DNA of 64,000 nucleotides from Escherichia coli (GTDB lineage: Bacteria > Pseudomonadota > Gammaproteobacteria > Enterobacterales > Enterobacteriaceae). The translations under genes and the position numbers were made by a program. Positions 1,313 through 64,000 of the stretch are shown here, one piece after another. How positions within the stretch are numbered: the stretch's first letter is position 1; each line of letters begins with the position of its first letter. The notes beneath the pieces are model-generated. The model was not told the origin of the DNA. It did not search any database and was given only the letters and a program-made list of their open reading frames with translations. The stretch lies in the NCBI RefSeq assembly GCF_002854065.1, contig NZ_CP024147.1; one strand, 5' to 3'.

Positions 1313-1359
1313 GGACTACCCAGAATATTGACAACAATAAGCGCCACTATAAAAGCACA

Positions 1360-2580: not shown

Positions 2581-2588
2581 ACTTTCTC

Positions 2589-4597
<2,009 letters not shown>

Positions 4598-6876: not shown

Positions 6877-6886
6877 TCTGCTTTAT

Positions 6887-6967
6887 GCCTGATGCGACGC
6901 TTGACGCGTCTTATCAGGCCTACAAAAGCTCAGTCCAGGTTGGATAAGACGCTTAAGCGTCGCATCC
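6887..6967. repeat. REP (BIME) elements downstream of nagE
   Basis: Two copies of the GCCTGATGCGACGC...CTTATCAGGCCTAC palindromic unit read directly. Confidence 0.8.
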
Positions 6968-6987
6968 AACAATGACGCAGGACTGGC

Positions 6988-7023
6988 AAAAGCGGTGGAG
7001 ATCTTCTCTGCCGCTTTTTTTTT
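6988..7023 (+). terminator. putative intrinsic terminator after nagE
   Basis: GC stem (agcgg...ccgct) followed by a T9 run. Confidence 0.5.
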
Positions 7024-7143
7024 CATCAATCATCCCCATAATCCTTGTTAGATTATCAATTTTAAAAAACTAACAGTTGTCAGCCTGTCCCGCTTATAAG
7101 ATCATACGCCGTTATACGTTGTTTACGCTTTGAGGAATCCACG

Positions 7144-8820: not shown

Positions 8821-8985
8821 CCTGGCCGGGTGAAGCGTTTACGTCGCATCCGGCAAGGAACAGACAAACAGTTTCAAACGCTAAATTGCCTGATGCGCTA
8901 CGCTTATCAGGCCTACATGATCTCTGCAATATATTGAGTTTGCGTGCTTTTGTAGGCCGGATAAGGCGTTCACGCCGCATCCGGC
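8821..8985. repeat. REP/BIME cluster downstream of glnS
   Basis: Three REP units (GCCGGATGCGACG..., GCCTGATGCGCTACGCTTATCAGGCCTAC, GTAGGCCGGATAAGGCG...). Confidence 0.8.
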
Positions 8986-9007
8986 AAGAAACATGCAAAC
9001 AATCCCA

Positions 9008-14040: not shown

Positions 14041-14586
14041 ATGAAAACGATTGAAGTTGATGATGAACTCTACAGCTATATTGCCAGCCACACTAAGCAT
14101 ATCGGCGAGAGCGCATCCGACATTTTACGGCGTATGTTGAAATTTTCCGCCGCATCACAGCCTGCTGCTCCGGTGACGAAAGAGGTTCGCGTTGCGTCAC
14201 CTGCTATCGTCGAAGCGAAGCCGGTCAAAACGATTAAAGACAAGGTTCGCGCAATGCGTGAACTTCTGCTTTCGGATGAATACGCAGAGCAAAAGCGAGC
14301 GGTCAATCGCTTTATGCTGCTGTTGTCTACACTATATTCTCTTGACGCCCAGGCGTTTGCCGAAGCAACGGAATCGTTGCACGGTCGTACGCGCGTTTAC
14401 TTTGCGGCAGATGAACAAACGCTGCTGAAAAATGGTAATCAGACCAAGCCGAAACATGTGCCAGGCACGCCGTATTGGGTGATCACCAACACCAACACCG
14501 GCCGTAAATGCAGCATGATCGAACACATCATGCAGTCGATGCAATTCCCGGCGGAATTGATTGAGAAGGTTTGCGGAACTATCTAA
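14041..14586 (+). CDS. seqA: replication initiation negative modulator SeqA
   Basis: 181-aa product [33 protein letters not shown]; start taken at the internal ATG of the longer ORF. Confidence 0.93.
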
Positions 14587-14611
14587 AACGTTGCAGACAA
14601 AGGACAAAGCA

Positions 14612-16252
14612 ATGGCAATCCACAATCGTGCAGGCCAACCTGCACAACAGAGTGATTTGATTAACGTCGCCCAACTGACGGCGCAATATTATGTACTGAA
14701 ACCAGAAGCAGGGAATGCGGAGCACGCGGTGAAATTCGGTACTTCCGGTCACCGTGGCAGTGCAGCGCGCCACAGCTTTAACGAGCCGCACATTCTGGCG
14801 ATCGCTCAGGCAATTGCTGAAGAACGTGCGAAAAACGGCATCACTGGCCCTTGCTATGTGGGTAAAGATACTCACGCCCTGTCCGAACCTGCATTTATTT
14901 CCGTTCTGGAAGTGCTGGCAGCGAACGGCGTAGATGTTATTGTGCAGGAAAACAATGGCTTCACTCCGACGCCTGCTGTTTCCAATGCCATCCTGGTTCA
15001 CAATAAAAAAGGTGGCCCGCTGGCAGACGGTATCGTGATTACACCGTCCCATAACCCGCCGGAAGATGGTGGAATCAAATACAATCCGCCAAATGGTGGC
15101 CCGGCAGATACCAACGTCACTAAAGTGGTGGAAGATCGTGCCAACGCACTGCTGGCCGATGGCCTGAAAGGCGTGAAGCGTATCTCCCTCGACGAAGCGA
15201 TGGCATCCGGTCATGTGAAAGAGCAGGATCTGGTGCAGCCGTTCGTGGAAGGGCTGGCCGATATCGTTGATATGGCGGCGATTCAGAAAGCGGGCCTGAC
15301 GCTTGGCGTTGATCCGCTGGGCGGTTCCGGTATCGAATACTGGAAGCGTATTGGCGAGTATTACAACCTCAACCTGACTATCGTTAACGATCAGGTCGAT
15401 CAAACCTTCCGCTTTATGCACCTTGATAAAGACGGCGCGATCCGTATGGACTGCTCCTCTGAGTGTGCGATGGCGGGCCTGCTGGCACTGCGTGATAAGT
15501 TCGATCTGGCGTTTGCTAACGACCCGGATTATGACCGTCACGGTATCGTCACTCCGGCAGGTTTGATGAATCCGAACCACTACCTGGCGGTAGCGATCAA
15601 TTACCTGTTCCAGCATCGTCCGCAGTGGGGCAAAGATGTTGCCGTTGGGAAAACGCTGGTTTCATCTGCGATGATCGACCGTGTGGTCAACGACTTGGGC
15701 CGTAAACTGGTAGAAGTCCCGGTAGGTTTCAAATGGTTTGTTGATGGTCTGTTCGACGGCAGCTTCGGCTTTGGCGGCGAAGAGAGCGCAGGGGCTTCCT
15801 TCCTGCGTTTCGACGGCACGCCGTGGTCCACCGACAAAGACGGCATCATCATGTGTCTGCTGGCGGCGGAAATCACCGCTGTCACCGGTAAGAACCCGCA
15901 GGAACACTACAACGAACTGGCAAAACGCTTTGGTGCGCCGAGCTACAACCGTTTGCAGGCAGCTGCGACTTCCGCACAAAAAGCGGCGCTGTCTAAGCTG
16001 TCTCCGGAAATGGTGAGCGCCAGCACCCTGGCAGGTGACCCTATCACCGCGCGCCTGACTGCTGCTCCGGGCAACGGTGCTTCTATTGGCGGTCTGAAAG
16101 TGATGACTGACAACGGCTGGTTCGCCGCGCGTCCGTCAGGCACGGAAGACGCATATAAGATCTACTGCGAAAGCTTCCTCGGTGAAGAACATCGCAAGCA
16201 GATTGAGAAAGAAGCGGTTGAGATTGTTAGCGAAGTTCTGAAAAACGCGTAA
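14612..16252 (+). CDS. pgm: phosphoglucomutase
   Basis: 546-aa product [16 protein letters not shown]... with phosphoserine loop (TPSHNP); seqA-pgm operon synteny. Confidence 0.94.
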
Positions 16253-16263
16253 ACACATTAAAT

Positions 16264-16296
16264 AAAAAAAGGGCGGTCGCAAGATCGCCCTTTTTT
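16264..16296. terminator. bidirectional terminator between pgm and potE
   Basis: A7-gggcggtcgcaagatcgccc-T6 hairpin. Confidence 0.75.
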
Positions 16297-16307
16297 ACTT
16301 TGCTTTT

Positions 16308-17627
16308 TTAACCGTGTTTATTTTTCAGTTCAAAGCGTGGTGATACCAGACCATACAGTGTCCAACCAAGGAAGGTCACGATGGAACCGTACAGCATGGC
16401 TTCTTCCCCGGATGAGTACAGCGCATAAAAGCTGTACATCGCGCCAACAAAAGCAACAAAGTTTGCAACTTTCGCTTTTGAGGGGGGCACATTAGCGACC
16501 TTCTGAATAATGACTAATGCCGCCATTGACAGAATATACGGAATGATATTGGTCACCACGGCCAGGTTAACCAGCACGTTGAACTGACTGTTTAGCGACG
16601 GGCTAATCGTCATCAGCGCCAACCCGCTCTGGATAATCACAATGGTCAACATTCCCTGCACCGGTGCATCCACTTTGGTTACACGGGAGAAAATTTTAGG
16701 GAAGTAGCCTTCATCAGATGAAGATTTAAACACCTGGGCAATGGTGAACTGCCAGCCAAGCAGCGAACCGCAGCAGGACATCACCATCAGCGCCATAATG
16801 ACTTTACCCACTTCCGGCGTGAACATCTGCGCGAAGGCCAGACCAAATGGTGCCGTTGAATTTGCCAGCTCCATATTTGGCACAATCCCGGCAATCACGT
16901 TGGTGGAGACGATATAAATCACCGCCGCACCTAACGTACCGCCGAGTACCGCGATTGGCACATTACGTTCCGGGTTTTCCACTACATCAGTATTTGCACA
17001 CGCAGACTCCAGACCAAGAAAAGCCCACAGCGTCATAGCGATGGAAGAACCTACCGCACTGAAGAACGGTGCATGATGCGGATTCCAGGAATCAACGTAC
17101 AGCGTCGGGCTAAACCAGAACCAGCCAATAATGCACAGACCGACGACCGGAATAATGACTCCCCACACAGTAATGCTACTGATTTGCCCGGTAATGCGCG
17201 CACCACCAAAGTTAGCCACGGTACAAATCCACAGCACCCCGATGGTCGCAAGACCAATCTGCACTGGCGACAAACTCGCGCCGAGCAGTTCGGTGCCGTA
17301 ACCAACCGCCGAAATAGCAATCGCGACGTTAGCAATCAGCAGTGAGACGCCGTAGGTATAGTTCGCCATAAAGTTACCGGATTTACCGAAAGCATACTCG
17401 GCATAACCGCCCATACCTCCTGATTTACGGCTGAACATACCGCATTTTGCGAATGCCCATGCCAGTGCCATTGAGCCTACGGCTGTCACCAGCCAGGAGA
17501 TAATTGAGATTGTCCCAACTTCGGCAAGCTTTGTCGGCAGCATGATGATACCGGAGCCCATCATGTTGACCATCGTCAGTATGGTTAACTGAACGACGCC
17601 CATTTTGTTCGATTTAGCCTGACTCAT
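16308..17627 (-). CDS. potE: putrescine:ornithine antiporter
   Basis: 439-aa APC-family membrane protein; overlaps the speF stop by 4 nt (operon). Confidence 0.93.
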   Translation of the reverse strand: MSQAKSNKMGVVQLTILTMVNMMGSGIIMLPTKLAEVGTISIISWLVTAVGSMALAWAFAKCGMFSRKSGGMGGYAEYAFGKSGNFMANYTYGVSLLIANVAIAISAVGYGTELLGASLSPVQIGLATIGVLWICTVANFGGARITGQISSITVWGVIIPVVGLCIIGWFWFSPTLYVDSWNPHHAPFFSAVGSSIAMTLWAFLGLESACANTDVVENPERNVPIAVLGGTLGAAVIYIVSTNVIAGIVPNMELANSTAPFGLAFAQMFTPEVGKVIMALMVMSCCGSLLGWQFTIAQVFKSSSDEGYFPKIFSRVTKVDAPVQGMLTIVIIQSGLALMTISPSLNSQFNVLVNLAVVTNIIPYILSMAALVIIQKVANVPPSKAKVANFVAFVGAMYSFYALYSSGEEAMLYGSIVTFLGWTLYGLVSPRFELKNKHG

Positions 17628-19831
17628 AATTTTTCCCCTTTCAGCAGGGTGCTTTGCGCATCACGAGGCTTGATGACATAGCACCAAACTTGCTTACGAC
17701 CATCATGTTCTTCGATATAGACACCCTGCAGCTCCGGTGCAAAACCTGGCAGCAGGTTGATCCCTTCTTCCAGAGCGCTGAAGTAACGCAGAACAGCACC
17801 ACCCCAGATTTCACCCGGAACAACACACAGCACACCCGGAGGATAAGGAAGCGCACCTTCGGCAGCGATACGGCCTTCAGCATCCGGCAGACGAACCAGT
17901 TCCACTTCACCGCGTAAATAGGCGTAGTTGGCTTCTTGCGGATTCATGCTGACGCGTGGGAAGTGCTCCTTACGGAACATCTCTTTTTGCAGTTGTTTCA
18001 CGTTGTGGCGGGCATACAAATCATGCATTTCCTGACACAACTGACGCAGGGTATAACCGGCGTAGCGCTCTTCATGCTGTTTGTAGATGGAAGGTAGCAC
18101 TTCTGCTAATGGCGCGTCGGACTCAAGCAGTTTTTCGAAGCGTACCAGCAGGGCAACAAGTTGCTGAAGTTTGGCCATATCTTCTGCCGGAGTCAGCAGG
18201 AAGAGGATGGAGTTAAGATCGCATTTTTCCGGCACTACGCCATTTTCGCGCAGGAAGTTAGCAAGAATCGTCGCGGGTACACCGAACGCTTCATATTCGC
18301 CGTTACGTGCATCAATACCTGGGGTTGTCAGCAACAGTTTGCATGGATCGACAAAGTATTGATTCTCTGCATAGCCTTCAAAAGAATGCCAGTGTTCCCC
18401 TGGTACAAACTGGAAGAAGCGCAGATCAACCGCAATTTGCGCTGTTTCATACGACTGCCAGGGTTTACCATCCACCAGTTCAGGTATGAACGGACGAATA
18501 TGCTGACAGTTATCGAGGATCAGTTTGCGGGCATTAATGCCATTTACCACACAATCCATCCACATATTACGACCGCTGACACCTTCATGCATTTTGGCGT
18601 TGATATCCAGTGCGGCAAACAGCGGATAGAACGGGCTGGTGGAGGCATGCATCATAAAGGCGTTGTTCATGCGTTTGTGCGGTACATAACGCTGTTGCCC
18701 TTTGATGTGGCTGTCTTTTTTATGGATTTGTGAAGTTTGAGAAAAACCAGCCTGCTGTTTATGTACGGATTGCGTAACCAGAATACCCGGATCGTTCTCA
18801 TTAAGATCCAGCAACAGCGGCGAACAGTCAGCCATCATCGGAATAAACTGTTCATAGCCGACCCATGCGGAATCAAACAGGATGTAGTCACACAGATGAC
18901 CAATTTTATCCACCACCTGGCGGGCGTTATAAATCGTACCGTCGTAGGTGCCTAGCTGAATCACAGCGAGGCGGAACGGACGCGCCTCTTTTGCCCGTTG
19001 CGGTGCAACTTCTGTAATCAGTTCACGCAGATAACTTTCTTCGAAGCAGTGCGCATCAATACCACCGATAAAACCATACGGGTTACGTGCTGTTTCCAGA
19101 TAAACCGGTGTTGCACCAGCCTGTAGCAAGGCCCCGTGGTGGTTAGACTTATGGTTATTGCGGTCAAATAGCACCAGATCACCCGGTGTCAGCAGGGCGT
19201 TTAAAACCACTTTGTTAGAAGATGAAGTACCATTTAAAACGAAGTAGGTTTTATCGGCATTAAACACTTTTGCTGCATGTTGCTGTGCAATGCATGGCGC
19301 GCCTTCGTGAATCAGCAGATCGCCCATCGCGACGTCGGCGTTGCACAAGTCGGCACGGAACAGCGCCTCACCAAAGTATTCCACAAACTGATTCCCCGCC
19401 GGATGGCGACGGAAAAATTCGCCGCCCTGATGACCGGGGCAGTCAAATGCGCTGTTGCCCTGATTGACATAATCGACCAGTGCGCGAAAGAAAGGTGGGC
19501 GCAGTTGAGTTTCATAATGGCTGGCAGCGGTTTCTAACTGACGACCATAAAATTCTTTGCGTGCTTCTCCATGTTCGAAGACACCAGAAATACGTGAAAG
19601 ATATTCTGCTGGTATACGTTCTTCATTTTCCGTTGCAATAAAAACAGGAATGTCATAGCCAGTAGCGTCTATTTCATCGAGTTTTCCACGTTCAACATCA
19701 CTGACTGATAAAATAATGGCGGCAACGTCAATATAATTACTTTCGTCTATATTCACGCATGCACGATGAGTGGAAAAACAATCCGGGCAAGAACGACTAA
19801 CGGCAATTTTTAATTCTGACATTTTGTTCAT
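17624..19831 (-). CDS. speF: inducible ornithine decarboxylase
   Basis: 735-aa ORF of the PLP-dependent Orn/Lys/Arg decarboxylase family; upstream speFL leader present; exact start (MNKMSELK or MSELK) not resolved. Confidence 0.9.
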   Translation of the reverse strand: MNKMSELKIAVSRSCPDCFSTHRACVNIDESNYIDVAAIILSVSDVERGKLDEIDATGYDIPVFIATENEERIPAEYLSRISGVFEHGEARKEFYGRQLETAASHYETQLRPPFFRALVDYVNQGNSAFDCPGHQGGEFFRRHPAGNQFVEYFGEALFRADLCNADVAMGDLLIHEGAPCIAQQHAAKVFNADKTYFVLNGTSSSNKVVLNALLTPGDLVLFDRNNHKSNHHGALLQAGATPVYLETARNPYGFIGGIDAHCFEESYLRELITEVAPQRAKEARPFRLAVIQLGTYDGTIYNARQVVDKIGHLCDYILFDSAWVGYEQFIPMMADCSPLLLDLNENDPGILVTQSVHKQQAGFSQTSQIHKKDSHIKGQQRYVPHKRMNNAFMMHASTSPFYPLFAALDINAKMHEGVSGRNMWMDCVVNGINARKLILDNCQHIRPFIPELVDGKPWQSYETAQIAVDLRFFQFVPGEHWHSFEGYAENQYFVDPCKLLLTTPGIDARNGEYEAFGVPATILANFLRENGVVPEKCDLNSILFLLTPAEDMAKLQQLVALLVRFEKLLESDAPLAEVLPSIYKQHEERYAGYTLRQLCQEMHDLYARHNVKQLQKEMFRKEHFPRVSMNPQEANYAYLRGEVELVRLPDAEGRIAAEGALPYPPGVLCVVPGEIWGGAVLRYFSALEEGINLLPGFAPELQGVYIEEHDGRKQVWCYVIKPRDAQSTLLKGEKL

Positions 19832-19976
19832 CTCTTTATTTCAGGTAATAGCAGGTCCTCAATTTCTCAAAGGAGAAATCGATCACGCCGGAAAAAAGCA
19901 AAGCTCCACCGCTGATAAATAAATCAGTAGTTTGCTTTTTGCAGATGCAATAACCCAGACCAGCCCGGTAACTGGC

Positions 19977-20151
19977 TATACTCGTCATACTTCAAGTTGC
20001 ATGTGCTGCGTCTGCGTTCGCTCACCCCAGTCACTTACTCATGTAAGCTCCTGGGGATTCACTCGCTTGTCGCCTTCCTGCAACTCGAATTATTTAGAGT
20101 ATATACTCGTCATACTTCAAGTTGCATATGCTGCGACTCGAATTATGTAGA
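19977..20151. repeat. ERIC (enterobacterial repetitive intergenic consensus) element with a partial tandem second copy
   Basis: Contains the ERIC core GTAAGCTCCTGGGGATTCAC and terminal repeats TATACTCGTCATACTTCAAGTTGCAT(G/A)TGCTGCG. Confidence 0.75.
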
Positions 20152-20246
20152 GTTTAAAAGGGTTAGCAGTATATGAGCACCGAGGGATACAGGTATTAAC
20201 CTGTAATGCTTAAAGTCAGGGAGACCTGTACGCTGGGGTGCCCTTT

Positions 20247-20351
20247 AGTCAGAAGACTAGCGGGCATTAAAGAAATGAAAGTCAAAACTATTACGATGGG
20301 CAAACTTCATGATATGGGTTGTCCGCCTTATATGAGGCATTAAGCGGTTAT
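20247..20351 (-). CDS. speFL: speF leader peptide (ornithine-sensing arrest peptide)
   Basis: 34-codon reverse-strand ORF MENNNRLMPHIRRTTHIMKFAHRNSFDFHFFNAR upstream of speF; the HIRRxxH and C-terminal FDFHFFNAR stretches match the described SpeFL. Confidence 0.8.
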
Positions 20352-20556
20352 TATTTTCCATTTACCTTTACCTCTTGCTGTGTCAGTTGAAGGTAGAGTT
20401 ATTCTATCCATGAAATGGCTATAATCTGTGAAGAAGATCAACAAAAAACGATCATACCCCAGATAATAAATCATTAATTATGAATAGCGCCATACTAGAT
20501 GCTGTTTTGTTACTTAAATGTTGTAATTTCGTGTTTTATATTTGCGTTAAGAAATT

Positions 20557-20590
20557 AAACCTGCCAAATAATAATATTTGGCGCAGGTTT
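20557..20590 (-). terminator. putative terminator downstream of kdpE
   Basis: Imperfect hairpin aaacctgccaaata...tatttggcgcaggttt in an AT-rich region just 3' of the kdpE stop. Confidence 0.4.
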
Positions 20591-20635
20591 AATAATAAAT
20601 TAATCACTATTTAGGCGAATTTATTGAATAAAAAT

Positions 20636-21313
20636 TCAAAGCATAAACCGATAACCAATCCCAGTTTCAGTAATAAAATGGCGAGGCCGGGCCGGGTCTT
20701 GCTCCAGTTTTTGTCGCAGATGCCCCATATAAATACGCAAATAATGACTGTGTTCGACCGCGTTTGGCCCCCACACCTGGTTAAGGAGTTGGCGCTGGGT
20801 GAGCACTTTCCCGGCATTATTCAGCAGCACCGCCAGCAGGCGGAATTCAATCGGCGTGAGATGCACCTCTTCCTCACCCCGGTGAATCACGCGGGCGGCT
20901 AAATCGACGGTAACATCGGAGAATTTCACCAGCGGATCGGGCGCGGTGGTGACAGAGTGGCGGCGTAATGCGACGCGCAGACGGGCCTGCAATTCGCCAA
21001 TGCCAAACGGCTTACTCAGATAATCATCCGCTCCGGCATCCAGCGCGGCGATTTTGTCGCTCTCTTCGCTGCGTGCGGAAAGCACAATCACCGGCACCGC
21101 GCTCCACTGGCGCAGGTCGCGGATAAACTCAATCCCATCACCATCGGGCAGGCCGAGATCGAGAATAATCAAATCTGGCTTACGGGTTGCCGCTTCCAGC
21201 AAGCCGCGTTGCAGCGTTTCGGCCTCAAAGACGCGCATCCCGTCGCCCTCCAGCGCCGTGCGCAGAAAGCGACGAATAGCCTGTTCATCTTCAACAATCA
21301 GAACGTTTGTCAC
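20636..21313 (-). CDS. kdpE: response regulator KdpE (OmpR family)
   Basis: 225-aa ORF with receiver domain (LIVEDEQAIRRFL...D) and winged-helix C-terminus. Confidence 0.94.
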   Translation of the reverse strand: MTNVLIVEDEQAIRRFLRTALEGDGMRVFEAETLQRGLLEAATRKPDLIILDLGLPDGDGIEFIRDLRQWSAVPVIVLSARSEESDKIAALDAGADDYLSKPFGIGELQARLRVALRRHSVTTAPDPLVKFSDVTVDLAARVIHRGEEEVHLTPIEFRLLAVLLNNAGKVLTQRQLLNQVWGPNAVEHSHYLRIYMGHLRQKLEQDPARPRHFITETGIGYRFML

Positions 21314-23994
21314 ATATCCTCATGAAATTCTTCAAGTTCAGGAGCGGTTTGCTGGGGAAGTGTAACACGAAAACAGGCACCACCTTCCGGTCGGTTGAAC
21401 GCGGTAATGGTGCCGCCGTGTACATCCACAATCGCCCGACAAATTGCCAGTCCAAGCCCTACCCCCGGTACTGCCGACTCTTTATTCCCGCGAGCAAACT
21501 TATCAAATATCGTCTGCTCCTGGCCTGGCGGAAGACCGGGGCCGTTATCCCAGACATCCAGTTGTAGATTTTCGCCCTCAACGTGGGCATCGATACCAAT
21601 TTCGGCCTGCGCACCCGCATATTTCACTGCGTTCTCCAGCAAATTAATCAGCACCCGTTCAAAGAGTGGCCCGTCAACGTGGATTAAGGTCAGCGGTTCT
21701 GGCAGAGAAAGATTGATGGGCGACGATAAACCCGGTTCCAGCATTTGCAGCGCGCTGCCGACTACTTCTTCCAGCGTTAACCACTCTTTCTTCAAATTAA
21801 AGCCGCCGGACTGAATTCGCGCCATATCCAGTAGATTATTCACCAGTCGGGTAGTGTTCAGCACATGCTGACGAATCTCGCTGGCCTGGCGGGCGTGGGG
21901 TGATCCTTCGCTTGCCAGATCGAGCGTTAAGATTTCTGCCTGACCAAACAGCACCGTAAGCGGAGTGCGTAAATCATGCGAAAGCGCCGCCAGCAGGGCG
22001 TTGCGGATCTGTTCACGTTCGCTTGCCATCCGCGCCTGTTCTTCGCTGGCGGTCAGCGTCAGCCGCTCAAGCGCATTGGCGACTAACAGCGTAAACGTCT
22101 CCAGCAGGCGCTGCTGTTCCGGGATCATCAACTGACGCAGATTCCCCGGTTCCACCACCACCAGCCCGTAGGTTTTCTCACCGCTTTTTAACGGCAAAAT
22201 CTGGTACGGCACGCCGGGTAACGTGTCGGTGCCCGCACCCGCAGGCAGGCCTTTATCAAAACTCCACTGCGCGATGGCATCGTCCCACGGCGTCATTCCT
22301 TGCGGATGTGTTAACGGCTGCAATTTACCGTTGTCATCGGGCAACAACACCTGACTGCGGGCATGAAACGTGGAGGCAATAAATTGTTCGCTGGTGGCGG
22401 CGATGTCCTGCGGACTGCGGCCCACAGCCAGAGCTTTCGACATTTCATATAAGTGCCGTGTGCGTTGTTCGCGGTAACGGGCTACCCGCGCCTGATAACG
22501 CACGCCAGCAGTAAGGTTCCCGATCACCAGCCCGACGGTTAACATCACCGCGAAGGTCAGCAGATATTGCACATCAGAGACGGCGAGCGTGCCGCGTGGG
22601 GCGATAAAAAAGAGATCGAAACTCACCACATTAATGACGGTAGCAACCACCGAAGGCCAGCGTCCATAAAATAGCGCCACCACCACCACGCCAAGTAGAT
22701 ACAGCATCACCAGGTTGGCGGCATCAAACGCCATCAGCCACTGCATGGCAATTAAGGTGATAACGGCGCATAACGCGGCGGCAACCACGCATCCCTGAAT
22801 CTGTACCCGCCACTTGTCTTTAAAAGAGCGGCTATCCGGCGCGTTGTTAATCGTGCGGGCGGGTGGTTCATCAAGCGCGACCAGCACCTGATCGAGATCG
22901 GGGGCGATGCGCGCCAGTCGGTCAGCAAACGTTTCCCGACGCCACCAGCGGCGCGAGGCTGGGCGACCGAGAATAATCTTGCCGAGATTATGTTCACGGG
23001 CATAACGCACTACCGCTTTCTCTTCCGCTGGATCAGAAAGTGTTGCCGTCTCCGCGCCCAGCTCCTGCGCCAGACGTAAGGCGCTGAGAATTGCCCGACG
23101 TTTTTTCTCCGGTAAGCGATGCAGGGCAGGGGTTTCAACATACACCGCGTGCCAGACGCTACCCAGCCGCGCCGCCAGCCGCGCCGCCGCGCGGACCAGT
23201 TTCTCACTGCCGGTGTTATGCCCGATGCATAAAAGGATCGCGTCGCGCGTGTGCCAGACTTTCTCTTCGCCAGGATGCCCCCGCCAGGCGCGCATTTGCT
23301 CATCAACGCGATCGGCAGTACGGCGCAGTGCCAGTTCGCGCAGGGCGATCAGATTGCCTTTGCGGAAAAAATGTTCAATGGCGCGCTCCGCCTGCCCGGC
23401 AATATAGACTTTGCCTTCTTTCAGCCGCTGGCGCAGATCGTCCGGGGGCAAGTCCACCAGCACCACGTCGTCGGCGGCATCGAAAAAAGGATCGGGCACG
23501 GTTTCCCGTACCTGAATTCCGGTGACGCCGCTGACCACATCATTCAGACTTTCCAGATGCTGAACGTTGACGGTTGTGAAAACATCAATGCCAGCTTCTA
23601 GCAGTTCTTCGATATCCTGCCAGCGTTTAGGATGACGAGAACCTGGCGCATTACTGTGCGCCAGTTCGTCCATTAAGATCAGCGCCGGACGGCGGGCGAG
23701 GGCGGCATCGAGATCAAACTCGCTGATGTGCCGCCCACGGTACGCCAGGCGTTTTGGCGGCAGAACAGCCAGCCCTTCCAGCATGGCGGCGGTATCTTTC
23801 CGCCCGTGGGTTTCTACCACGCCAACCACAATATCCAGCCCTTGCGCCCGCAGTCGCTGGGCTTCTGCCAGCATCGCCCAGGTCTTCCCGACGCCTGCGC
23901 AGGCACCGAAGAAAACTTTCAGCTTCCCCCGATGCGGCGCGGCAGTTTGTTCCAGCAGACGATCGGGGTCGGGACGTAAGGGTTCGTTATTCAT
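21310..23994 (-). CDS. kdpD: sensor histidine kinase KdpD
   Basis: 894-aa product from [13 protein letters not shown]; Walker-A-containing KdpD N-domain, four TM helices, HisKA/HATPase; overlaps the kdpC stop. Confidence 0.93.
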
Positions 23995-24559
23995 CAAGTT
24001 TATCCAGCGCCAGATTGAGTTCGACAATGTTGACGACCGGCTGGCCGATATATTTCACCAGTGGTTGTTGGCTGTATTTTGCGATCAGTTGCGTGAGCTG
24101 TTCAACGCTGAGATTACGCGCTTTCGCTACGCGTGGGATCTGCCAGGCAGCCGCTTGCGGGGTGATGTTATTGTCCAGCCCGCTTGCCGACGCCGTCACC
24201 AGTTCAACCGGAACGTTCGCGCTGGCATCCGGGTTAGTGGCCCGTAATGCAGCAACGCGTGCGGCTATTAGTTTATCCAGCTCAGGGTTACTGACCGCCA
24301 GGTTGCTCCCGCCAGAAGCCTGTGGATTATAGGGCATTTCTGCCGTTGCCGACGGGCGACCATGAAAATAGCCGTTGCCGGTAAAATTCTGCCCGATTAA
24401 TGCCGAACCGCGCACCGTATCACCTTCACGAATCAACGAACCATTGGCCTGCCAGGGAAACCACCATTGCCCCAGCACGGTGGTCAGCAGCGGGTAAACG
24501 CCGCCAGTAATCAATAACAGAAAGATAAATGTCGATAATGCCGGACGTAATCCACTCAT
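23987..24559 (-). CDS. kdpC: K+-transporting ATPase subunit C
   Basis: 190-aa product starting [16 protein letters not shown]. Confidence 0.92.
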
Positions 24560-24567
24560 GGTAAACC

Positions 24568-26616
24568 TCACACCAGACCGCAAACGGTCAGCAGTAAATC
24601 AATGACTTTGATACCAATAAACGGCACCAGCAGCCCACCCAGACCGTAAATCCATAAGTTACGGCGCAACATGGCAGAAGCGGTAAGCGGTTTATAACTC
24701 ACACCTTTTAACGCCAGAGGAATCAAAAAGACGATAATCAAGGCGTTGAAAATGACCGCACTGAGAATGGCGGAGTCGGGCGAATGAAGGCGCATGATGT
24801 TCAGCGCATTTAACTGCGGATACGTTGCCGCGAACGCCGCCGGAATAATGGCGAAGTATTTCGCCACATCGTTGGCAATGCTGAAGGTGGTCAGCGAGCC
24901 ACGGGTCATCAGCATCTGTTTGCCAATGTGCACCACCTCGATCAACTTGGTCGGGTTAGAGTCGAGATCGACCATATTGCCCGCCTCTTTCGCCGCCTGG
25001 GTGCCAGAGTTCATCGCCACCGCGACATCTGCCTGCGCCAGCGCCGGAGCATCGTTGGTGCCGTCGCCGGTCATCGCTACCAAACGACCTTCCGCCTGAT
25101 ACTGACGAATCAATGCCAGCTTGGCCTCCGGTGTCGCTTCGGCGAGGAAATCATCGACGCCCGCTTCTGCAGCTATCGCAGCGGCAGTCAGACGGTTATC
25201 GCCGGTAATCATCACCGTTTTAATGCCCATTTGGCGCAGTTGCGCGAAGCGTTCTTTAATGCCGCCTTTAATGATATCTTTCAGCGCAATAACGCCCAGC
25301 ACACGAGAACCTTCCACCACCACCAGCGGCGTGGCTCCCTGACGCGCAACCTGATCGACTTTTTGATCAACATCGGCAGGGAAGTGACCACCGTTAGCCT
25401 CAACATGGCGGCGAATGGCATCGACAGAACCTTTACGGATCATGCGGTTGTCGATGTTGATCCCGCTCATCCGGCTTTGCGCAGTAAACGGTACAAAGGT
25501 GGCATGGAGCGACTGCACATCGCGTTCGCGCAGGTTAAAACGTTGCTTGGCGAGGATCACAATACTGCGGCCTTCCGGCGTTTCATCAGCCAGCGAAGCC
25601 AGTTGTGCGGCGTCAGCCAGCATTTTTTCATCCACGCCCTGCGCAGGGATAAACTCCGATGCCTGACGGTTACCGAGTGTGATGGTGCCGGTTTTATCCA
25701 GCAGCAGAACGTCAACGTCACCTGCCGCTTCAACTGCACGTCCGCTGGTGGCAATCACATTCGCGCCCAGCATCCGACTCATCCCGGCGACGCCGATCGC
25801 TGACAACAGGCCGCCAATAGTGGTTGGGATCAGACAGACCAGCAGCGCCACCAGTACCGTTACACTGACTGCATTACCACCCCACGCAGAAAACGGCCAC
25901 AGCGTGGCGGTTGCCAGTAAAAAGACGATAGTCAGGGCAATCAGCAGGATGGTCAGGGCAATCTCGTTCGGCGTTTTACGTCGCTGTGCGCCTTCCACCA
26001 TCGCGATCATCCGATCCAGAAATGTCTCGCCGGGGTTAACGCTACACTCAATCACCAGCCAGTCAGAAAGAATACGCGTGCCGCCGGTGACGGAGGCAAA
26101 ATCGCCGCCGGATTCACGGATAACCGGTGCCGATTCCCCGGTGATGGCGCTTTCATCGACCGATGCACCCCCTTCAATAACTTCACCATCGCAGGGGATA
26201 ATATCGCCAGCTTCTACTAGCACGATGTCACCTTTGCGCAGTTGATCGGCGGGAACTTTGTCCGCCGCAGCGCCATATTTCGGTTCGCGCAGCTTGCGGG
26301 CAAAGGCAGTTTTTTTCACCCCTTTCAGACTGTTGGCCTGCGCTTTACTGCGGCCTTCTGCCAGCGCCTCGGCGAAATTAGCGAACAGTACGGTGATCCA
26401 CAGCCAACCGCTAATGGCTGCGCTAAACAGCGCAATGCCGGGCATCGCACCGCTTGCCATCGCGATGCTAATACAGGTGGTCAGCAGACTGCCGATCCAG
26501 ACGATAAACATCACCGGATTGCGCCATTGCGCCTGCGGGTTTAATTTTTTCACCGCTTCTTTCAGCGCCTGAACGACAAGTGTTGGTTCGAATAGCGCCA
26601 GTTGTTTACGACTCAT
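24568..26616 (-). CDS. kdpB: K+-transporting P-type ATPase subunit B
   Basis: 682-aa ORF with P-type ATPase DKTGTIT phosphorylation motif. Confidence 0.95.
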
Positions 26617-26638
26617 ATTCAGTGCTCACTCAATATCA

Positions 26639-28312
26639 TCAGGAGAGATATTCCGCCACCGGACCAAGCGCCAGGGCAGGGATAAAGGTCAGTGCGCCAA
26701 CCAGCAACACGGTGCCGATTAACAGGCCAACAAACAGCGGGCCGTGCGTTGGCAGCGTGCCGGAGCTGGCGGGTTGGCTCTTTTTACTCACCAGCGAACC
26801 GGCAATTGCCATCACCGGGATAATCACCCCGAAGCGACCGACAAACATGCAGAACGCCAGTAAACAGTTCCAGAACGGAGAGTTGGCGCTTAATCCGGCA
26901 AAGGCGCTGCCGTTGTTGTTAGCGGCGGATGACACGGCGTACAGCACTTCGCTAAAACCATGCGGGCCAGGGTTGAGCATGGCGCTACGTCCGGCGTCGG
27001 TCATCATTGCCAGCGCCGCGCCCATCAGCACCAGCGTCGGGGTGACCAGAATCGCCAGTGCAGTCAGTTTCATCTCACGTACGTCGATTTTTTTACCCAG
27101 ATATTCCGGTGTACGACCAATCATCAGCCCGGCAATAAACACCGCCAGCAGGACAAACAGCATCATGCCGTAAAGACCAGAACCGACACCGCCGAATACC
27201 ACTTCACCAATTTGCATCAGCCACATCGGCACCATGCCACCGAGAGCGGTAAACGAATCATGCATCGCAATCACCGCGCCACAGGACGCCGCCGTAGTCA
27301 CGACCGCAAACAGGCTACTGACCAGCACGCCGAAACGGCTCTCTTTACCTTCCATATTGATGCTGCTGTCCGCACCCAGCGCCAGCAGATGAGGATTACC
27401 CTGAACTTCTGCCCACATCACCACGCCTACGCAGATGACAAAAATCACTGACATCGCCCACAGCAACATGCGCCCCTGGCGGCGATCGCCCGTCACTTCA
27501 CCAAAGGCAAAGCACAGCGCTGTTGGGATCAAGAAGATCGCCAGCATCTGCACGAAGTTGGTCAGTGCGGTTGGGTTTTCAAACGGATGCGACGAGTTGG
27601 CATTAAAGAAACCACCGCCGTTAGTGCCGAGCATCTTGATCGCTTCCTGAGAAGCCACCGGACCCATTGGTAACAGCTGTTGCGCTCCTTCAACGGTATT
27701 CACCGCCTGATAAGGCTGAAAGTTTTGCAGTGCACCTTGTTGAATAAAAAACAGTGCGATCAACAACGCCACAGGGACTAGCACCCATAACGTGATGCGT
27801 AGCAGATCGACCCAGGCATTCCCGAGTGTGCTCATGCTCTGGCGGGTAAATGCACGGATGAAGGCAAAAATCACCGCAATCCCGCTGGCGGCAGAAAGAA
27901 AGTTTTGCACCGTTAAGCCCGCCATCTGGCTGAAATAGCTCAACGTGGTTTCACCGCTATAAGATTGCCAGTTGGTATTCGTGACAAAGCTGACGGCGGT
28001 ATTCAGCGCCAGATCCCACGACAGCCCCGGCAACTGCTGTGGATTAAGCGGCAGATAGTGCTGACCGAGCAACATAAAAAACAGCACCGCAAGCCCCAGC
28101 ATGTTCAGGCCGAGAATGGCTGAGAGATACTGCTTCCAGTTCATCTCATGGTTAGAGACGCCAGGTAAACGAAAGAGTATACGTTCAACGCCCGCTGTAC
28201 CGGGAAGAGGAATATCATTAATCAACCGTGCCAGCCCGCTACCTAAGGGACGCGCCAGCACCATCAGCACCAGTAAAAACGTGGCGATCAATAAGAACCC
28301 TTGCGCAGCCAT
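26639..28312 (-). CDS. kdpA: K+-transporting ATPase subunit A
   Basis: 557-aa product from [18 protein letters not shown]; start codon overlaps the kdpF stop (ATGA). Confidence 0.93.
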
Positions 28313-37526: not shown

Positions 37527-37554
37527 CAGACGCGTCAGGCAATCGAGCCCAGAT

Positions 37555-37660
37555 GCCGGATGCGGCGTGAACGCCTTATCCAGCCTACAAATTTGTGCAA
37601 ATTCAATAAATTGCAGGAAATACGTAGGCCTGATAAGACGCGTCAAGCGTCGCATCAGGC
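37555..37660. repeat. REP elements between phr and dtpD
   Basis: GCCGGATGCGGCGTGAACGCCTTATCCAGCCTAC and GTAGGCCTGATAAGACGCGTCAAGCGTCGCATCAGGC. Confidence 0.8.
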
Positions 37661-59339: not shown

Positions 59340-59360
59340 TAGTTTAAGTTTCACCTGCAC

Positions 59361-59529
59361 TGTAGACCGGATAAGACATTATCGCCTTCTCCGGCAATTG
59401 AAGCCTGATGCGACGCTGAACGCGTCTTATCAGGCCTACGGGAAGCACCGATGTAGGTCGGATAAGGCGCTCGCGCCGCATCCGACAAGCGATGCCAGAT
59501 GCGACGCTTGCGCGTCTTATCAGGCCTAC
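59361..59529. repeat. REP/BIME cluster between sucB and sucC
   Basis: Three to four REP units read directly. Confidence 0.8.
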
Positions 59530-59614
59530 GGGTGACCGACAATACCCGGGAGCGATACGAAATATTCGGTCTACGGTTTAAAAGATAACGATTACTGAAG
59601 GATGGACAGAACAC

Positions 59615-60781
59615 ATGAACTTACATGAATATCAGGCAAAACAACTTTTTGCCCGCTATGGCTTACCAGCACCGGTGGGTTATGCCTGTACTACTCCGCG
59701 CGAAGCAGAAGAAGCCGCTTCAAAAATCGGTGCCGGTCCGTGGGTAGTGAAATGTCAGGTTCACGCTGGTGGCCGCGGTAAAGCGGGCGGTGTGAAAGTT
59801 GTAAACAGTAAAGAAGACATCCGTGCTTTTGCAGAAAACTGGCTGGGCAAGCGTCTGGTAACGTATCAAACAGATGCCAATGGCCAACCGGTTAACCAGA
59901 TTCTGGTTGAAGCGGCGACCGATATCGCTAAAGAGCTGTATCTCGGTGCCGTTGTTGACCGTAGTTCACGTCGCGTGGTCTTTATGGCCTCCACCGAAGG
60001 CGGCGTGGAAATCGAAAAAGTGGCGGAAGAAACTCCGCACCTGATCCATAAAGTTGCGCTTGATCCGCTGACTGGCCCGATGCCGTATCAAGGACGCGAG
60101 CTGGCGTTCAAACTGGGTCTGGAAGGTAAACTGGTTCAGCAGTTCACCAAAATCTTCATGGGCCTGGCGACCATTTTCCTGGAGCGCGACCTGGCGCTGA
60201 TCGAAATCAACCCGCTGGTTATTACCAAACAGGGCGATCTGGTCTGCCTCGACGGCAAACTGGGCGCTGATGGCAACGCACTGTTCCGCCAGCCTGATCT
60301 GCGCGAAATGCGCGACCAGTCGCAGGAAGATCCGCGTGAAGCACAGGCTGCACAGTGGGAACTGAACTACGTTGCGCTGGACGGTAACATCGGTTGTATG
60401 GTTAACGGCGCAGGTCTGGCGATGGGTACGATGGACATCGTTAAACTGCACGGCGGAGAACCGGCTAACTTCCTGGACGTTGGCGGCGGCGCAACCAAAG
60501 AACGTGTAACCGAAGCGTTCAAAATCATCCTCTCTGACGACAAAGTGAAAGCCGTTCTGGTTAACATCTTCGGCGGTATCGTTCGTTGCGATCTGATCGC
60601 TGACGGTATCATCGGCGCGGTAGCGGAAGTGGGTGTTAACGTACCGGTCGTGGTACGTCTGGAAGGTAACAACGCCGAACTCGGCGCGAAGAAACTGGCT
60701 GACAGCGGCCTGAATATTATTGCAGCAAAAGGTCTGACGGATGCAGCTCAGCAGGTTGTTGCCGCAGTGGAGGGGAAATAA
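59615..60781 (+). CDS. sucC: succinyl-CoA synthetase beta subunit
   Basis: 388-aa [23 protein letters not shown]... Confidence 0.96.
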
Positions 60782-61650
60782 TGTCCATTTTAATTGATAA
60801 AAACACCAAGGTTATCTGCCAGGGCTTTACCGGTAGCCAGGGGACTTTCCACTCTGAACAGGCCATTGCATACGGCACCAAAATGGTTGGTGGCGTAACT
60901 CCAGGTAAAGGCGGTACTACCCACCTCGGCCTGCCGGTGTTCAACACCGTGCGTGAAGCTGTTGCTGCTACTGGCGCTACCGCTTCTGTTATCTACGTAC
61001 CAGCACCGTTCTGCAAAGACTCCATTCTGGAAGCCATCGACGCAGGCATCAAACTGATTATCACCATCACTGAAGGCATCCCGACGCTGGATATGCTGAC
61101 CGTGAAAGTGAAGCTGGATGAAGCAGGCGTTCGTATGATCGGCCCGAACTGCCCAGGCGTTATCACTCCGGGTGAATGCAAAATCGGTATCCAGCCTGGT
61201 CACATTCACAAACCGGGTAAAGTGGGTATCGTTTCCCGTTCCGGTACACTGACCTATGAAGCGGTTAAACAGACCACGGATTACGGTTTCGGTCAGTCGA
61301 CCTGTGTCGGTATCGGCGGTGACCCGATCCCTGGCTCTAACTTTATCGACATTCTCGAAATGTTCGAAAAAGATCCGCAGACCGAAGCGATCGTGATGAT
61401 CGGTGAGATCGGCGGTAGCGCTGAAGAAGAAGCAGCTGCGTACATCAAAGAGCACGTTACCAAGCCAGTTGTGGGTTACATCGCTGGTGTGACTGCGCCG
61501 AAAGGCAAACGTATGGGCCACGCGGGTGCCATCATTGCCGGTGGGAAAGGGACTGCGGATGAGAAATTCGCTGCTCTGGAAGCCGCAGGCGTGAAAACCG
61601 TTCGCAGCCTGGCGGATATCGGTGAAGCACTGAAAACTGTTCTGAAATAA
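60781..61650 (+). CDS. sucD: succinyl-CoA synthetase alpha subunit
   Basis: 289-aa [27 protein letters not shown]...; start overlaps the sucC stop. Confidence 0.96.
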
Positions 61651-61749
61651 ATATCTGTAATAAGAAATAGCCCTCGCCGCTTCCCTCTACAGGAATGGCG
61701 AAGGGCTGTCGGTTTCGACATGGTTGGCCATCGTATGATGGCCTTTTTT
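61651..61749 (+). ncRNA. sdhX: SdhX (RybD) small RNA derived from the sucD 3'UTR
   Basis: About 100 nt immediately after the sucD stop, with a GC stem (agccctcgcc...ggcgaagggct) and a terminal hairpin ggccatc-gtat-gatggcc plus T6; placement matches the known 3'UTR-derived sRNA; 5' end not determinable here. Confidence 0.6.
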
Positions 61750-62316
61750 ATGCCTTAAACGGTTAACCACGGTCGAAATCTGACTGCAGGCTTGACTGCA
61801 TGACCACAGCCACTGTGGATTGCCGCAACCGACCGCAAGCCACGAATAAGAACGACGGCGAATTTCGAATCGTTACCTGATGCACTGGCTTCCCAGCGTT
61901 TGACCGTAGCGTTAAGTAAATCAACAAAAGCGATGTTCACCGCTTTTCGTCAAGTCGTGCCATTTGTCAGCCAGGATCGGGTCTTTACCCCGGATATTGC
62001 AGCATCGCAAAAATTCTTAGAGGGATATGCTATAAATCAAAAATAAAATCTTTGTTGATTGTTTATCATAATATCCACAGATATGATAAATGATATCAAT
62101 TTAATAATTTTCACTTAATGTGATTCCGGATAATTCGAAAGGCGCTGTGCTTTTCGGATTATTATTATCTGATTAAGATATTTGTCACGCCAGGCTTACT
62201 GGTTTATAAATGTCAATCATGATTCTTATAAATTATTTATTGCTGCTTTGGTTACCATTACTTCGTAATAAGTAATGTATTTTTGATTGTTTAAACTATT
62301 TTTAAGGGACGGCATT

Positions 62317-62416
62317 ATGCGAGGGAAAATACCTAAAACGGAACTGCTGGTGACTTTTGAGGTCGTCGCACGTCATGAAAGTTATACCAGAGCGGCAGAG
62401 GAGTTAGCGTTAACCC
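62317..62416 (+). pseudogene. 5' fragment (33 codons) of a LysR-type transcriptional regulator, truncated by IS1
   Basis: ATG preceded by AAGGGA; MRGKIPKTELLVTFEVVARHESYTRAAEELALT is a LysR-family HTH start; reading frame runs straight into the IS1 terminal repeat at 62417. Confidence 0.7.
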
Positions 62417-62431
62417 GGTAATGACTCCAAC

Positions 62432-62935
62432 TTATTGATAGTGTTTTATGTTCAGATAATGCCCGATGACTTTGTCATGCAGCTCCACCGATTTTGAGAA
62501 CGACAGCGACTTCCGTCCCAGCCGTGCCAGGTGCTGCCTCAGATTCAGGTTATGCCGCTCAATTCGCTGCGTATATCGCTTGCTGATTACGTGCAGCTTT
62601 CCCTTCAGGCGGGATTCATACAGCGGCCAGCCATCCGTCATCCATATCACCACGTCAAAGGGTGACAGCAGGCTCATAAGACGCCCCAGCGTCGCCATAG
62701 TGCGTTCACCGAATACGTGCGCAACAACCGTCTTCCGGAGCCTGTCATACGCGTAAAACAGCCAGCGCTGGCGCGATTTAGCCCCGACGTATCCCCACTG
62801 TTCGTCCATTTCCGCGCAGACGATGACGTCACTGCCCGGCTGTATGCGCGAGGTTACCGACTGCGGCCTGAGTTTTTTAAATGGCGGAAAATCGTGTTGA
62901 GGCCAACGCCCATAATGCGGGCGGTTGCCCGGCAT
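62432..62935 (-). CDS. insB: IS1 InsB (expressed as the InsAB' transposase by -1 frameshift)
   Basis: 167-aa ORF; slippery TTTAAAAAAC on the coding strand (T-run 62873-62878 on plus). Confidence 0.93.
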
Positions 62936-63129
62936 CCAACGCCATTCATGGCCATATCAATGATTTTCTGGTGCGTACCGGGTTGAGAAGCGGTGTAAGT
63001 GAACTGCAGTTGCCATGTTTTACGGCAGTGAGAGCAGAGATAGCGCTGATGTCCGGCAGTGCTTTTGCCGTTACGCACCACCCCGTCAGTAGCTGAACAG
63101 GAGGGACAGCTGATAGAAACAGAAGCCAC
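62854..63129 (-). CDS. insA: IS1 InsA
   Basis: 91-aa [46 protein letters not shown]... Confidence 0.95.
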
Positions 63130-63184
63130 TGGAGCACCTCAAAAACACCATCATACACTAAATCAGTAAGTTGGCAGCATCACC

Positions 63185-63655
63185 CACCACGATTTGCAAA
63201 ATTTCATTGTGCGCCATGGCATCGACAATGCTGGTGGGGAAAGCATGCGAAATAAATACTTTTAGCGTAAAGGGTTCTGCCGCGACCACTCCGGTGGTTT
63301 CGGCACCGTGTGCAACAAAATTAATTCCTGTACCTGGCATGAAGAAATTTACCGTTATCAAGCCTAAGGCAATTGACAGCAATGAGGCGCAAATAAATAA
63401 AAAGAGTGTTTTAGAAAAAATACGACCAAGGGCTTTGGCATCGCCCATTTTAGCAATACCTACCACCAGGGTAGAGACCACTAACGGAGCGATAATCATT
63501 TTTATCAGTCGTAAGAAAATCGTCGTGAATATCGATATTTCTTGCGCATAGAGTTTTGCGGTTTCCGGTGAAGCAGTGTTATTGAGCACTACGCCGATAA
63601 TCATTCCAAGTACCAGCGCCAAAAGAATCATCGTGGTTAAACTTATTTTCTTCAT
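63185..63655 (-). pseudogene. 5' part (~157 codons) of a sodium:dicarboxylate symporter (DAACS) family transporter gene, 3' end replaced by IS1
   Basis: MKKISLTTMILLALVLGMIIGVVLNN...IFLRLIKMIIAPLVVSTLVVGIAKMGD resembles the conserved N-terminus of GltP/GltT/DctA-type carriers; GGAGG RBS; frame runs into the IS1 end. Confidence 0.7.
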
Positions 63656-63700
63656 TTTTTCCTCCATCAGGTGCACGGCGATAAATCAGAATCAGGAGAA

Positions 63701-63732
63701 GTAGATGCCTGAATAGAGATTCAGGCATCTAC
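63701..63732. repeat. perfect 14-bp inverted repeat with 4-nt loop
   Basis: gtagatgcctgaat-agag-attcaggcatctac read directly; lies in the leader upstream of the truncated transporter gene. Confidence 0.6.
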
Positions 63733-63815
63733 CTGCTATTACAACCTTACAAATAGCTGAAGTGTTGAACTGCAATAAGTGACGGGATGTCAGTTGGCTA
63801 AAAGTATTCGGATTT

Positions 63816-64000
63816 TTACAAATCGAAACTCATATTTAATAAAGGTGCATGTTGCTGTGCACCATAGACATCATTGTCACCTACATTCCCGGAGATAATA
63901 TCTCGTGGCATGACGATTTTTACTGCGTTAGAAGGATCAAACCAGACAATACGATGAATAAAGTCAGGTTCAACATGATATAAGCGCGCAATCAGTTCTG
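63816..64000 (-). CDS. 3' end of an unidentified ORF that starts beyond the window end
   Basis: Open reverse-strand frame to the window edge ending ...ELIARLYHVEPDFIHRIVWFDPSNAVKIVMPRDIISGNVGDNDVYGAQQHAPLLNMSFDL; same strand as and upstream of the transporter gene; family not recognised. Confidence 0.4.
   Translation of the reverse strand, partial: ELIARLYHVEPDFIHRIVWFDPSNAVKIVMPRDIISGNVGDNDVYGAQQHAPLLNMSFDL

Follow-up and report, generated by a model that had tools for sequence, protein, structure and literature searches.

sucD, sdhX and the end of K-12 homology

The stretch of Escherichia coli DNA analysed here (64 kb, referred to throughout as the window) contains sucA, sucB, sucC and sucD, the last of which (60781-61650, plus strand) is a 289-aa open reading frame that is annotated as sucD in all matching records and forms the last core gene before the sequence departs from that of K-12. 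The 3' UTR of sucD holds the small RNA sdhX (61651-61751, plus strand), which is intact, as the initial annotation had stated: 100 of its 101 bases are the same as in the annotated sdhX of K-12 (b4764), the single change (61750, A/G) lies in the 3' tail, and a terminator-like hairpin (61726-61743) with its T-run is present. We judged sdhX by its identity to the K-12 annotation because an Rfam scan of 61400-62450 matched no SdhX family at threshold; the sole match of that scan, to RsaOG within the AT-rich block described below, was at chance level (E 0.7).

Aligned to K-12 MG1655 (NC_000913.3, 764000-772500), the window is 99.7% identical over 61000-61753, and blastn detected no homology beyond this point. 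Position 61753 corresponds to K-12 765152; in K-12, sdhX as annotated ends 2 nt earlier, and the stop codon of mngR begins with the next base. The junction (61753/61754) therefore leaves the small RNA and its terminator untouched. The initial annotation had described a locus unlike that of K-12, with mngR missing after sdhX, and the alignment bears this out: blastn searches with K-12 mngRAB across the whole 64 kb returned REP-like matches only and no mngR, mngA or mngB DNA, and tblastn over the same 64 kb found no MngR-like coding sequence (best E=1.3).

A methylaspartate-pathway island in place of mngRAB

From 61754 on, the sequence is that of the left end of a ~14-kb island of the methylaspartate pathway (99.8-100% identity), so that the DNA suspected earlier of horizontal acquisition is indeed an accessory segment. 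Strain XJ34, which carries the island intact, is 100% identical to the window over both 61000-62416 and 63185-64000 and provides the complete gene order: sucD is followed by a gene for a LysR-type regulator (301 aa, plus strand), then by a series of minus-strand genes for cobO, a class I fumarate hydratase, a dicarboxylate/amino-acid symporter, DUF4387, an AtuA-family protein, methylaspartate ammonia-lyase, methylaspartate (glutamate) mutase E, GlmL, GlmS and two hypothetical proteins, and finally by cydA. When K-12 and XJ34 are aligned, 13,970 bp of XJ34 (positions 14155-28124 of its locus, L002) stand in for the 5,932 bp of K-12 that comprise mngR-mngA-mngB (positions 1154-7085 of its locus, L003); the gap between sucD and cydA is the site of both the island and the K-12 mngRAB segment. 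The K-12 arrangement, sucD-sdhX-mngR-mngA-mngB-cydA, is thus the same as that of the window through sdhX to 61753, after which K-12 has mngRAB and the window has the island. That mngR has been replaced holds true, but the replacement involves all of mngRAB and a ~14-kb island, not a local promoter block.

At least 80% of 61600-62421 is covered in 835 of 5,426 complete E. coli genomes (~15%), at 99.8-100% identity and with many O157:H7 and O145 strains among them, and in these genomes, as in the match to XJ34, the island sits directly downstream of sucD/sdhX with the regulator gene first. The initial annotation had allowed that this sequence might be the normal reference arrangement; it is not the layout of K-12, yet with these 835 genomes, O157:H7 included, it is a common alternative, and one that has already been published. 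A cluster with GltP, FumD, CobA and a LysR-type regulator was described by Kronen and Berg (2015; PLoS One, PMC4682846), who put its frequency at 26.5% among E. coli strains and at 90.6% among O157:H7 strains. No condition was found in that study under which O157:H7 expresses the genes of the cluster (PMC4682846), and any role of the intact regulator is therefore putative.

The O157:H7 cluster occupies the same site as the island in the window, directly after sucD/sdhX, and the two share the left junction, the relic and AT-rich block described below, the start of the regulator gene (all at 99.8-100% identity), the symporter and DUF4387. The GltP-like symporter and DUF4387 genes occur in island order in the window, although both are incomplete, the former owing to an IS1 element and the latter to the end of the window. 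Unlike the O157:H7-type cluster, the window has this IS1 together with a deletion of 4,021 bp, through which most of the regulator gene, cobO, fumD and 63% of the symporter gene have been lost: the part of XJ34 that includes cobO (adenosyltransferase) and fumD (mesaconase/class I fumarase), 14818-18838, has no counterpart here. Genes that encode glutamate mutase and the lyase would, by comparison with the O157:H7-type cluster, fall beyond position 64000. The genome paper on EDL933 reportedly mentions this cluster as one of the O-islands; its O-island number was not found in the literature searched.

A lyase-gene relic next to the junction

The DNA directly beyond the junction (61754-61902) is probably decayed island DNA and holds most of a GTG-initiated open reading frame of 61 codons (61755-61940, minus strand). 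According to the initial annotation, the first ~230 bp after sdhX were mixed sequence with this reading frame as their only feature. The reading frame does exist in the list of open reading frames, but the region is not otherwise empty, as the stretch that follows (61903-62046, plus strand) is the relic of a gene of the histidine ammonia-lyase (aromatic amino-acid lyase) family, reduced to its C-terminal end of ~46-48 codons. Its plus-strand translation runs ...ALSKSTKAMFTAFRQVVPFVSQDRVFTPDIAASQKFLEGYAINQK and ends in a stop codon (62044-62046). In strain EC2641, the same 48-aa reading frame is called 'histidine ammonia-lyase' by PGAP; it aligns to positions 456-498 of the 505 in NCBIfam hutH models (E 2.8e-4) and to the C-terminal ends of another five aromatic-lyase or aminomutase models, and weak matches to the structures of ergothionase and AdmH likewise fall at their C-termini. 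Pfam gave no lyase match for this stretch because its model ends before the C-terminal tail.

A full-length PF00221 enzyme of ~500 residues, with the catalytic (MIO-forming) region, is not encoded here, and the frame contains stops upstream. The stretch 61903-62046 is thus the relic of a gene and not a member of the family. The same site in Escherichia whittamii, between sucD and the regulator gene, has a longer relic of 99 codons (PF00221, E 1.2e-12), whose tail is 87% identical to the relic in the window, and just upstream of it lies a fragment of a urocanase gene (PF01175, E 5.7e-7). Together, the lyase relic and the urocanase fragment of E. whittamii indicate that the left end of the island holds the remnants of a hutU/hutH-like pair. 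The edge of the E. whittamii island shares 61754-61791 with the window, and 61792-61908 is not shared. A possible urocanase relic at 61770-61830 of the window, suggested by a resemblance to the nucleotide-binding motif LTAGLGGMGGAQPL of urocanase, was rejected, its score of 23 being not significantly above that of shuffled sequences (20.4 +/- 2.9). Word-indexed protein searches with the relics of the window and of E. whittamii found no intact donor lyase gene, only other Escherichia relics.

The AT-rich block and its counterparts in other genera

Between the stop codon of the relic and the ATG of the regulator gene lies an AT-rich, non-coding block (62047-62316, plus strand; 28% GC) that constitutes the upstream region of the regulator. 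The GC content drops from ~0.5 to 0.23-0.34 between about 61990 and 62316, in keeping with the very AT-rich DNA that had been described ahead of the LysR-type start. With a GC content of 0.28, the block ranks among the lowest segments of the 64 kb: just 0.2% of 270-bp intervals are as low, and the minimum of the whole window (0.26) is located here. TpA steps account for 11.5% of the block as against 4.5% window-wide, a composition that is compatible with H-NS-silenced DNA. The H-NS nucleation motif is TCGATAAATT, and no match to it within 2 mismatches occurs in the block. From 61909 to 62414, which takes in the end of the relic, the block and the start of the regulator gene, the window is 88% identical to E. 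whittamii.

A hairpin with a 15-bp stem (62129-62163, plus strand; MFE -20 kcal/mol, z -3.5, with 1 of 200 shuffles as stable) is kept in E. whittamii, where a T-to-C change turns a G-U pair into a G-C pair. This hairpin may be the leftover terminator of the lyase relic. Downstream of it, a candidate sigma-70 promoter (62182-62210, plus strand) can be read as TTGTCA at 62182 and TATAAA at 62205, with a spacing of 17 nt. A consensus promoter scan reported two minus-strand sites and no plus-strand site in the block, at a level not above that of shuffles; the candidate was missed because the scan requires a T at position 6 of the -10 hexamer. The block also has perfect dyads at 62063-62089 and 62256-62277. 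By analogy, the block most likely serves the GcvA-like LysR-type regulator as its promoter and operator region.

The region upstream of this regulator is AT-rich in five genera (GC 0.30 in Salmonella, 0.32 in Citrobacter and 0.34 in Yersinia). Outside Escherichia, its alignment is patchy, with blastn matches that reach hardly further than about 40 bp upstream of the ATG, and for this reason no operator motif could be derived from the five genera aligned. The orthologs of the regulator in Yersinia enterocolitica and Citrobacter (63% and 86% identity, respectively) have fumD, cobO and the glm-mal genes nearby. The regulator gene is divergent from sumT in Citrobacter and from sumT-(GHMP kinase)-glmS-mutL-glmE-mal-AtuA in Y. 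enterocolitica, whereas in E. coli a lyase relic lies upstream on the same strand and the regulator gene is faced by the catabolic genes in convergent orientation. In the classical layout of LysR-type systems, the regulator is divergent from its target operon, with a shared control region between the two. The divergent arrangement in Yersinia suggests that the glm-mal operon is probably the target of this regulator, in which case the divergent partner would have been lost or rearranged in E. coli. The Yersinia layout, in which the regulator is divergent from the glm-mal operon, thus offers a testable hint as to what the regulator controls.

IS1 and a deletion of 4,021 bp interrupt the island

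The LysR-type start named in the initial annotation is present: the ATG at 62317 opens a LysR-type frame whose sequence is the same as that of XJ34 up to 62416. At 62416/62417, however, the gene is cut by an IS1 element, inside the region for the helix-turn-helix, and it is dead in this genome. What is left is a stump (62317-62421, plus strand) that consists of 33 native codons, a junction codon and a stop codon inside IS1. The 34-aa product has a partial match to HTH_1 (model positions 2-26 of 60) at 26.0 bits, short of the cut-off of 26.6, and a domain search of these 34 residues found no effector domain. It therefore lacks what defines a LysR-type protein, that is, a full HTH_1 along with LysR_substrate, both of which are present in the GcvA-like intact ortholog of XJ34 (301 codons). 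The AT-rich block had been credited with driving a LysR-type gene; with only 33 native codons left ahead of IS1, ending inside the helix-turn-helix, it cannot do so in this genome.

The element itself (62417-63184; 768 bp) has 99.9% identity with the IS1B annotated in EC2641 and 99.2% with the one in CUWW06. It starts with GGTAATGACTCC... and ends with ...GGCAGCATCACC, and its two open reading frames on the minus strand, of 91 and 167 aa, have the sizes of InsA and InsB. Length (~768 bp), terminal inverted repeats, insA/insB and near-identity to annotated copies all identify it as IS1, and it is the sole copy within the 64-kb window. No target-site duplication of 8-9 bp was found, as the 9-bp flanks, CGTTAACCC and CACCACGAT, are unlike each other. 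The absence of a duplication is what a deletion linked to IS1 would leave, be it an adjacent deletion made by intramolecular transposition or the outcome of recombination between two copies of the element.

Comparison with XJ34 reveals this deletion: 4,021 bp (L002 14818-18838) are gone, with IS1 in their place, and with them regulator codons 34-301, cobO, fumD and symporter codons 158-426. On the far side of IS1, the window (63185-64000) resumes as XJ34 L002 18839-19654, at 100% identity. This segment begins with the N-terminal 157 codons of the GltP-like dicarboxylate/amino-acid:cation symporter (63185-63655, minus strand; PF00375 positions 1-140 of 387, E 2.8e-28), an intact gene of which has 426 codons, so that the C-terminal 269 codons (63%) have been deleted. 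The 3' part of the DUF4387 gene (63816-64000, minus strand; coordinates transferred from XJ34 L002 19470-19787) follows and is cut by the end of the window.

A search of the 5,426 complete genomes found neither of the two IS1 junctions, two apparent full-coverage matches having turned out to be separate pieces that had been joined, and the event is therefore specific to this strain. A similar lesion exists in EC2641 (NZ_JALDNN010000001.1), where, as in the window, cobO and fumD are lost and the truncated genes for the regulator and the symporter are linked by a single IS1. The breakpoints differ (XJ34 15127-19036 in EC2641 and 14818-18838 in the window), and the two deletions are independent events.

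Interpretation of the locus

Cumulatively, we consider it very probable that the DNA from 61754 to 64000 belongs to the glutamate-fermentation (methylaspartate-pathway) island of Enterobacteriaceae and forms its left end, the island having replaced mngRAB and been broken by IS1. The ~14-kb island occupies the sucD-cydA gap as a substitute for the ~5.9-kb mngR-mngA-mngB segment. Its first ~290 bp after the junction are probably decayed coding DNA, the last ~145 bp of which are the tail of a histidine ammonia-lyase-family gene on the plus strand, together with its stop codon. The 270-bp AT-rich non-coding region comes next, with a hairpin that is probably the terminator of the relic, and it is here that the regulator most likely has its promoter and operator. 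The insertion of IS1 after codon 33 and the neighbouring deletion of 4,021 bp have destroyed the regulator, and the AT-rich block now drives, at most, a non-functional peptide of 34 residues. What can be seen of the island is a remnant in decay.

Two other readings would make more of the DNA between sdhX and the regulator gene. Either of the small reading frames, the GTG-initiated one of 61 codons (61755-61940, minus strand) or one of 48 codons with a TTG start (61900-62046, plus strand), could be a real gene: both frames are open, and the latter has been annotated as a coding sequence by PGAP in one genome or more and has entries among protein records. We give this next to no credence. The 61-codon frame is most simply spurious, since it has no family match in Pfam, is unannotated in the five related records inspected and overlaps the relic; the 48-codon frame, quite apart from its TTG start, matches only the last ~45 positions of lyase models of ~505 residues, with the catalytic part absent, and in E. 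whittamii the frame extends upstream into more lyase sequence, which is the signature of a truncated relic. The other reading, close to that of the initial annotation, holds that the AT-rich block was acquired, is bound by H-NS and acts as the promoter of a functional LysR-type regulator in place of mngR. The block is indeed island DNA, its GC content is the lowest of the window, its TpA content is raised, and the LysR-type start codon stands directly after it. Moreover, the island genes have been reported as unexpressed under the conditions tried (PMC4682846), which is compatible with silencing, though no demonstration of it. As a whole, this reading is very improbable: a functional gene is refuted by the truncation after 33 codons, inside the helix-turn-helix and with no effector domain remaining, the swap is that of a 14-kb island for mngRAB and not for mngR alone, the block holds no near match to the nucleation motif, and no H-NS data on the methylaspartate cluster were found in the literature searched.

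The lesion itself might be suspected of being an assembly artefact, in which two copies of IS1, located in the genes for the regulator and the symporter respectively, were collapsed into one and the 4 kb between them dropped. IS1 is multicopy in E. coli and Shigella, such a collapse would equally leave no target duplication, and neither junction occurs among the 5,426 complete genomes. That the complete-level chromosome of EC2641 has an analogous single-IS1 deletion with other breakpoints argues against an artefact, as it indicates that such deletions do occur here, and deletions adjacent to IS1 are a classical activity of this element. We regard a collapse as decidedly improbable, and both genes would be interrupted by IS1 even if it had taken place. 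Given a genuine deletion, it could have arisen by homologous recombination between two directly oriented, independently inserted copies of IS1 instead of by intramolecular adjacent deletion. Simple IS1 insertions are frequent in other strains (in the AT-rich block, around regulator codon 83, in fumD and in DUF4387), which makes two-hit intermediates plausible, and either route leaves one IS1 without a target duplication. No genome has IS1 at either of the junctions of the window, however, and hence no intermediate has been seen; we hold recombination between two elements to be a serious possibility that falls somewhat short of being the favoured route. The end product alone fits both routes alike.

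The arrangement at this locus is ordinary and already described, and it bears a strain-specific IS1 lesion. Its importance extends little beyond correct annotation, since variation at the sucD-cydA gap is known and the methylaspartate island has been described as an accessory cluster. With the regulator, the adenosyltransferase, the mesaconase and the transporter gone, no capacity for glutamate fermentation should be read from the island genes of this strain. Since the DNA from sdhX to the regulator gene includes the relic of a lyase gene, the small open reading frames in it do not merit annotation as genes.

Recurrent IS1 insertions at the left end of the island

IS1 has hit the left end of the island repeatedly: in the few complete genomes that we inspected, seven independent IS1 events were mapped within about 5.2 kb of the island, and the IS1 deletion of EC2641 is among these recurrent events. 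Four of the seven have a breakpoint within the ~500 bp made up of the AT-rich block plus the regulator's first ~85 codons. Simple insertions, each flanked by a duplication of 8-9 bp, were located in CUWW06 (equivalent to 62072-62080 of the window), in MEW (equivalent to 62300-62308, 9 bp before the ATG), in 2018-05-2CC (around codon 83 of the regulator gene), in E200086 (in fumD) and in ETEC4077 (in DUF4387). From their similar match rows, XJ5.2 probably has IS1 in fumD as in E200086, and ETEC4079 probably has it in DUF4387 as in ETEC4077. The regulator gene of the O157:H7 strain TR01 has an internal stop (a nonsense mutation).

Recurrent hits of this kind could mean that loss of the regulator or of the pathway has been selected for, for instance if expression of the B12-dependent glutamate mutase pathway without an outlet for citramalate were costly, but we think this rather unlikely. 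IS1 prefers AT-rich DNA, and this preference is the ordinary alternative and our default explanation for the recurrence of IS1 at the left end of the island.

Left ends of the island vary among genera

In Salmonella enterica LR134141.1 (L007 7022-8000), the methylaspartate-pathway island likewise lies immediately 3' of sucD, but the ~840 bp running from the sdhX-like sequence to the ATG of the LysR-type regulator are unrelated to the histidine ammonia-lyase-family relic and AT-rich block that occupy this position in E. coli, such that the left ends of the island vary among genera. (Several suc genes look split in this Salmonella record, probably because of assembly indels.) Two gene fragments remain in the corresponding sucD-regulator gap of Escherichia whittamii (L006 7663-8300), one from a urocanase (PF01175, E 5.7e-7) and the other, 99 codons long, from a lyase (PF00221, E 1.2e-12), and these domain matches suggest that a hutU/hutH-like pair was formerly present on the island. 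In addition, the symporter gene is missing from the island copy of this species, in which cobO is shortened.

In E. coli E200086 (L011 1-1965), homology to the island starts only ~38 bp 5' of the regulator ATG, at a position equivalent to ~62279 in the window and inside the AT-rich block, and the gene upstream of the regulator is of the RtcB family, in place of sucD. Together, these features indicate a further rearrangement or insertion breakpoint within the AT-rich block.

IS1 events at the island left end

Inspection of a few genomes (the window and loci L001, L004, L005, L010, L011 and L012 from related genomes) placed seven independent IS1 events within ~5.2 kb of the island. The breakpoints of four of the seven (strains CUWW06, MEW and 2018-05-2CC, and the window itself) fall within ~500 bp, window 62072-62570, comprising the AT-rich block and regulator codons 1 to ~85. 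This pattern could be due either to an IS1 target preference or to recurrent inactivation. Separately, the regulator of O157:H7 TR01 contains an internal stop.

Regulator neighbors in Yersinia and Citrobacter

The orthologous regulator of Yersinia enterocolitica (L009 4759-8921) is divergent from sumT-GHMP kinase-glmS-mutL-glmE-mal, and in Citrobacter (L008 6807-8903), the regulator ortholog and sumT are divergently transcribed. These layouts offer a testable hint at the target of the regulator that is hidden by the arrangement in E. coli.

Repeat-like DNA elsewhere in the window

The sucB-sucC intergenic spacer measures 275 bp in the window (59340-59614), its length in other strains (L005, L001 and L002) is 93, 275 or 365 bp, and the short ORFs inside it contain repeated motifs typical of REP-type elements; the repeat content of this spacer thus appears to be variable. 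When the K-12 mngRAB segment was compared with the whole window, the only matches came from its mngB-cydA intergenic part (K-12 L003 5518-5633). These matches, at window 8876-8990 and 37553-37616 (81-87% identity), are probably dispersed REP-like repeats.
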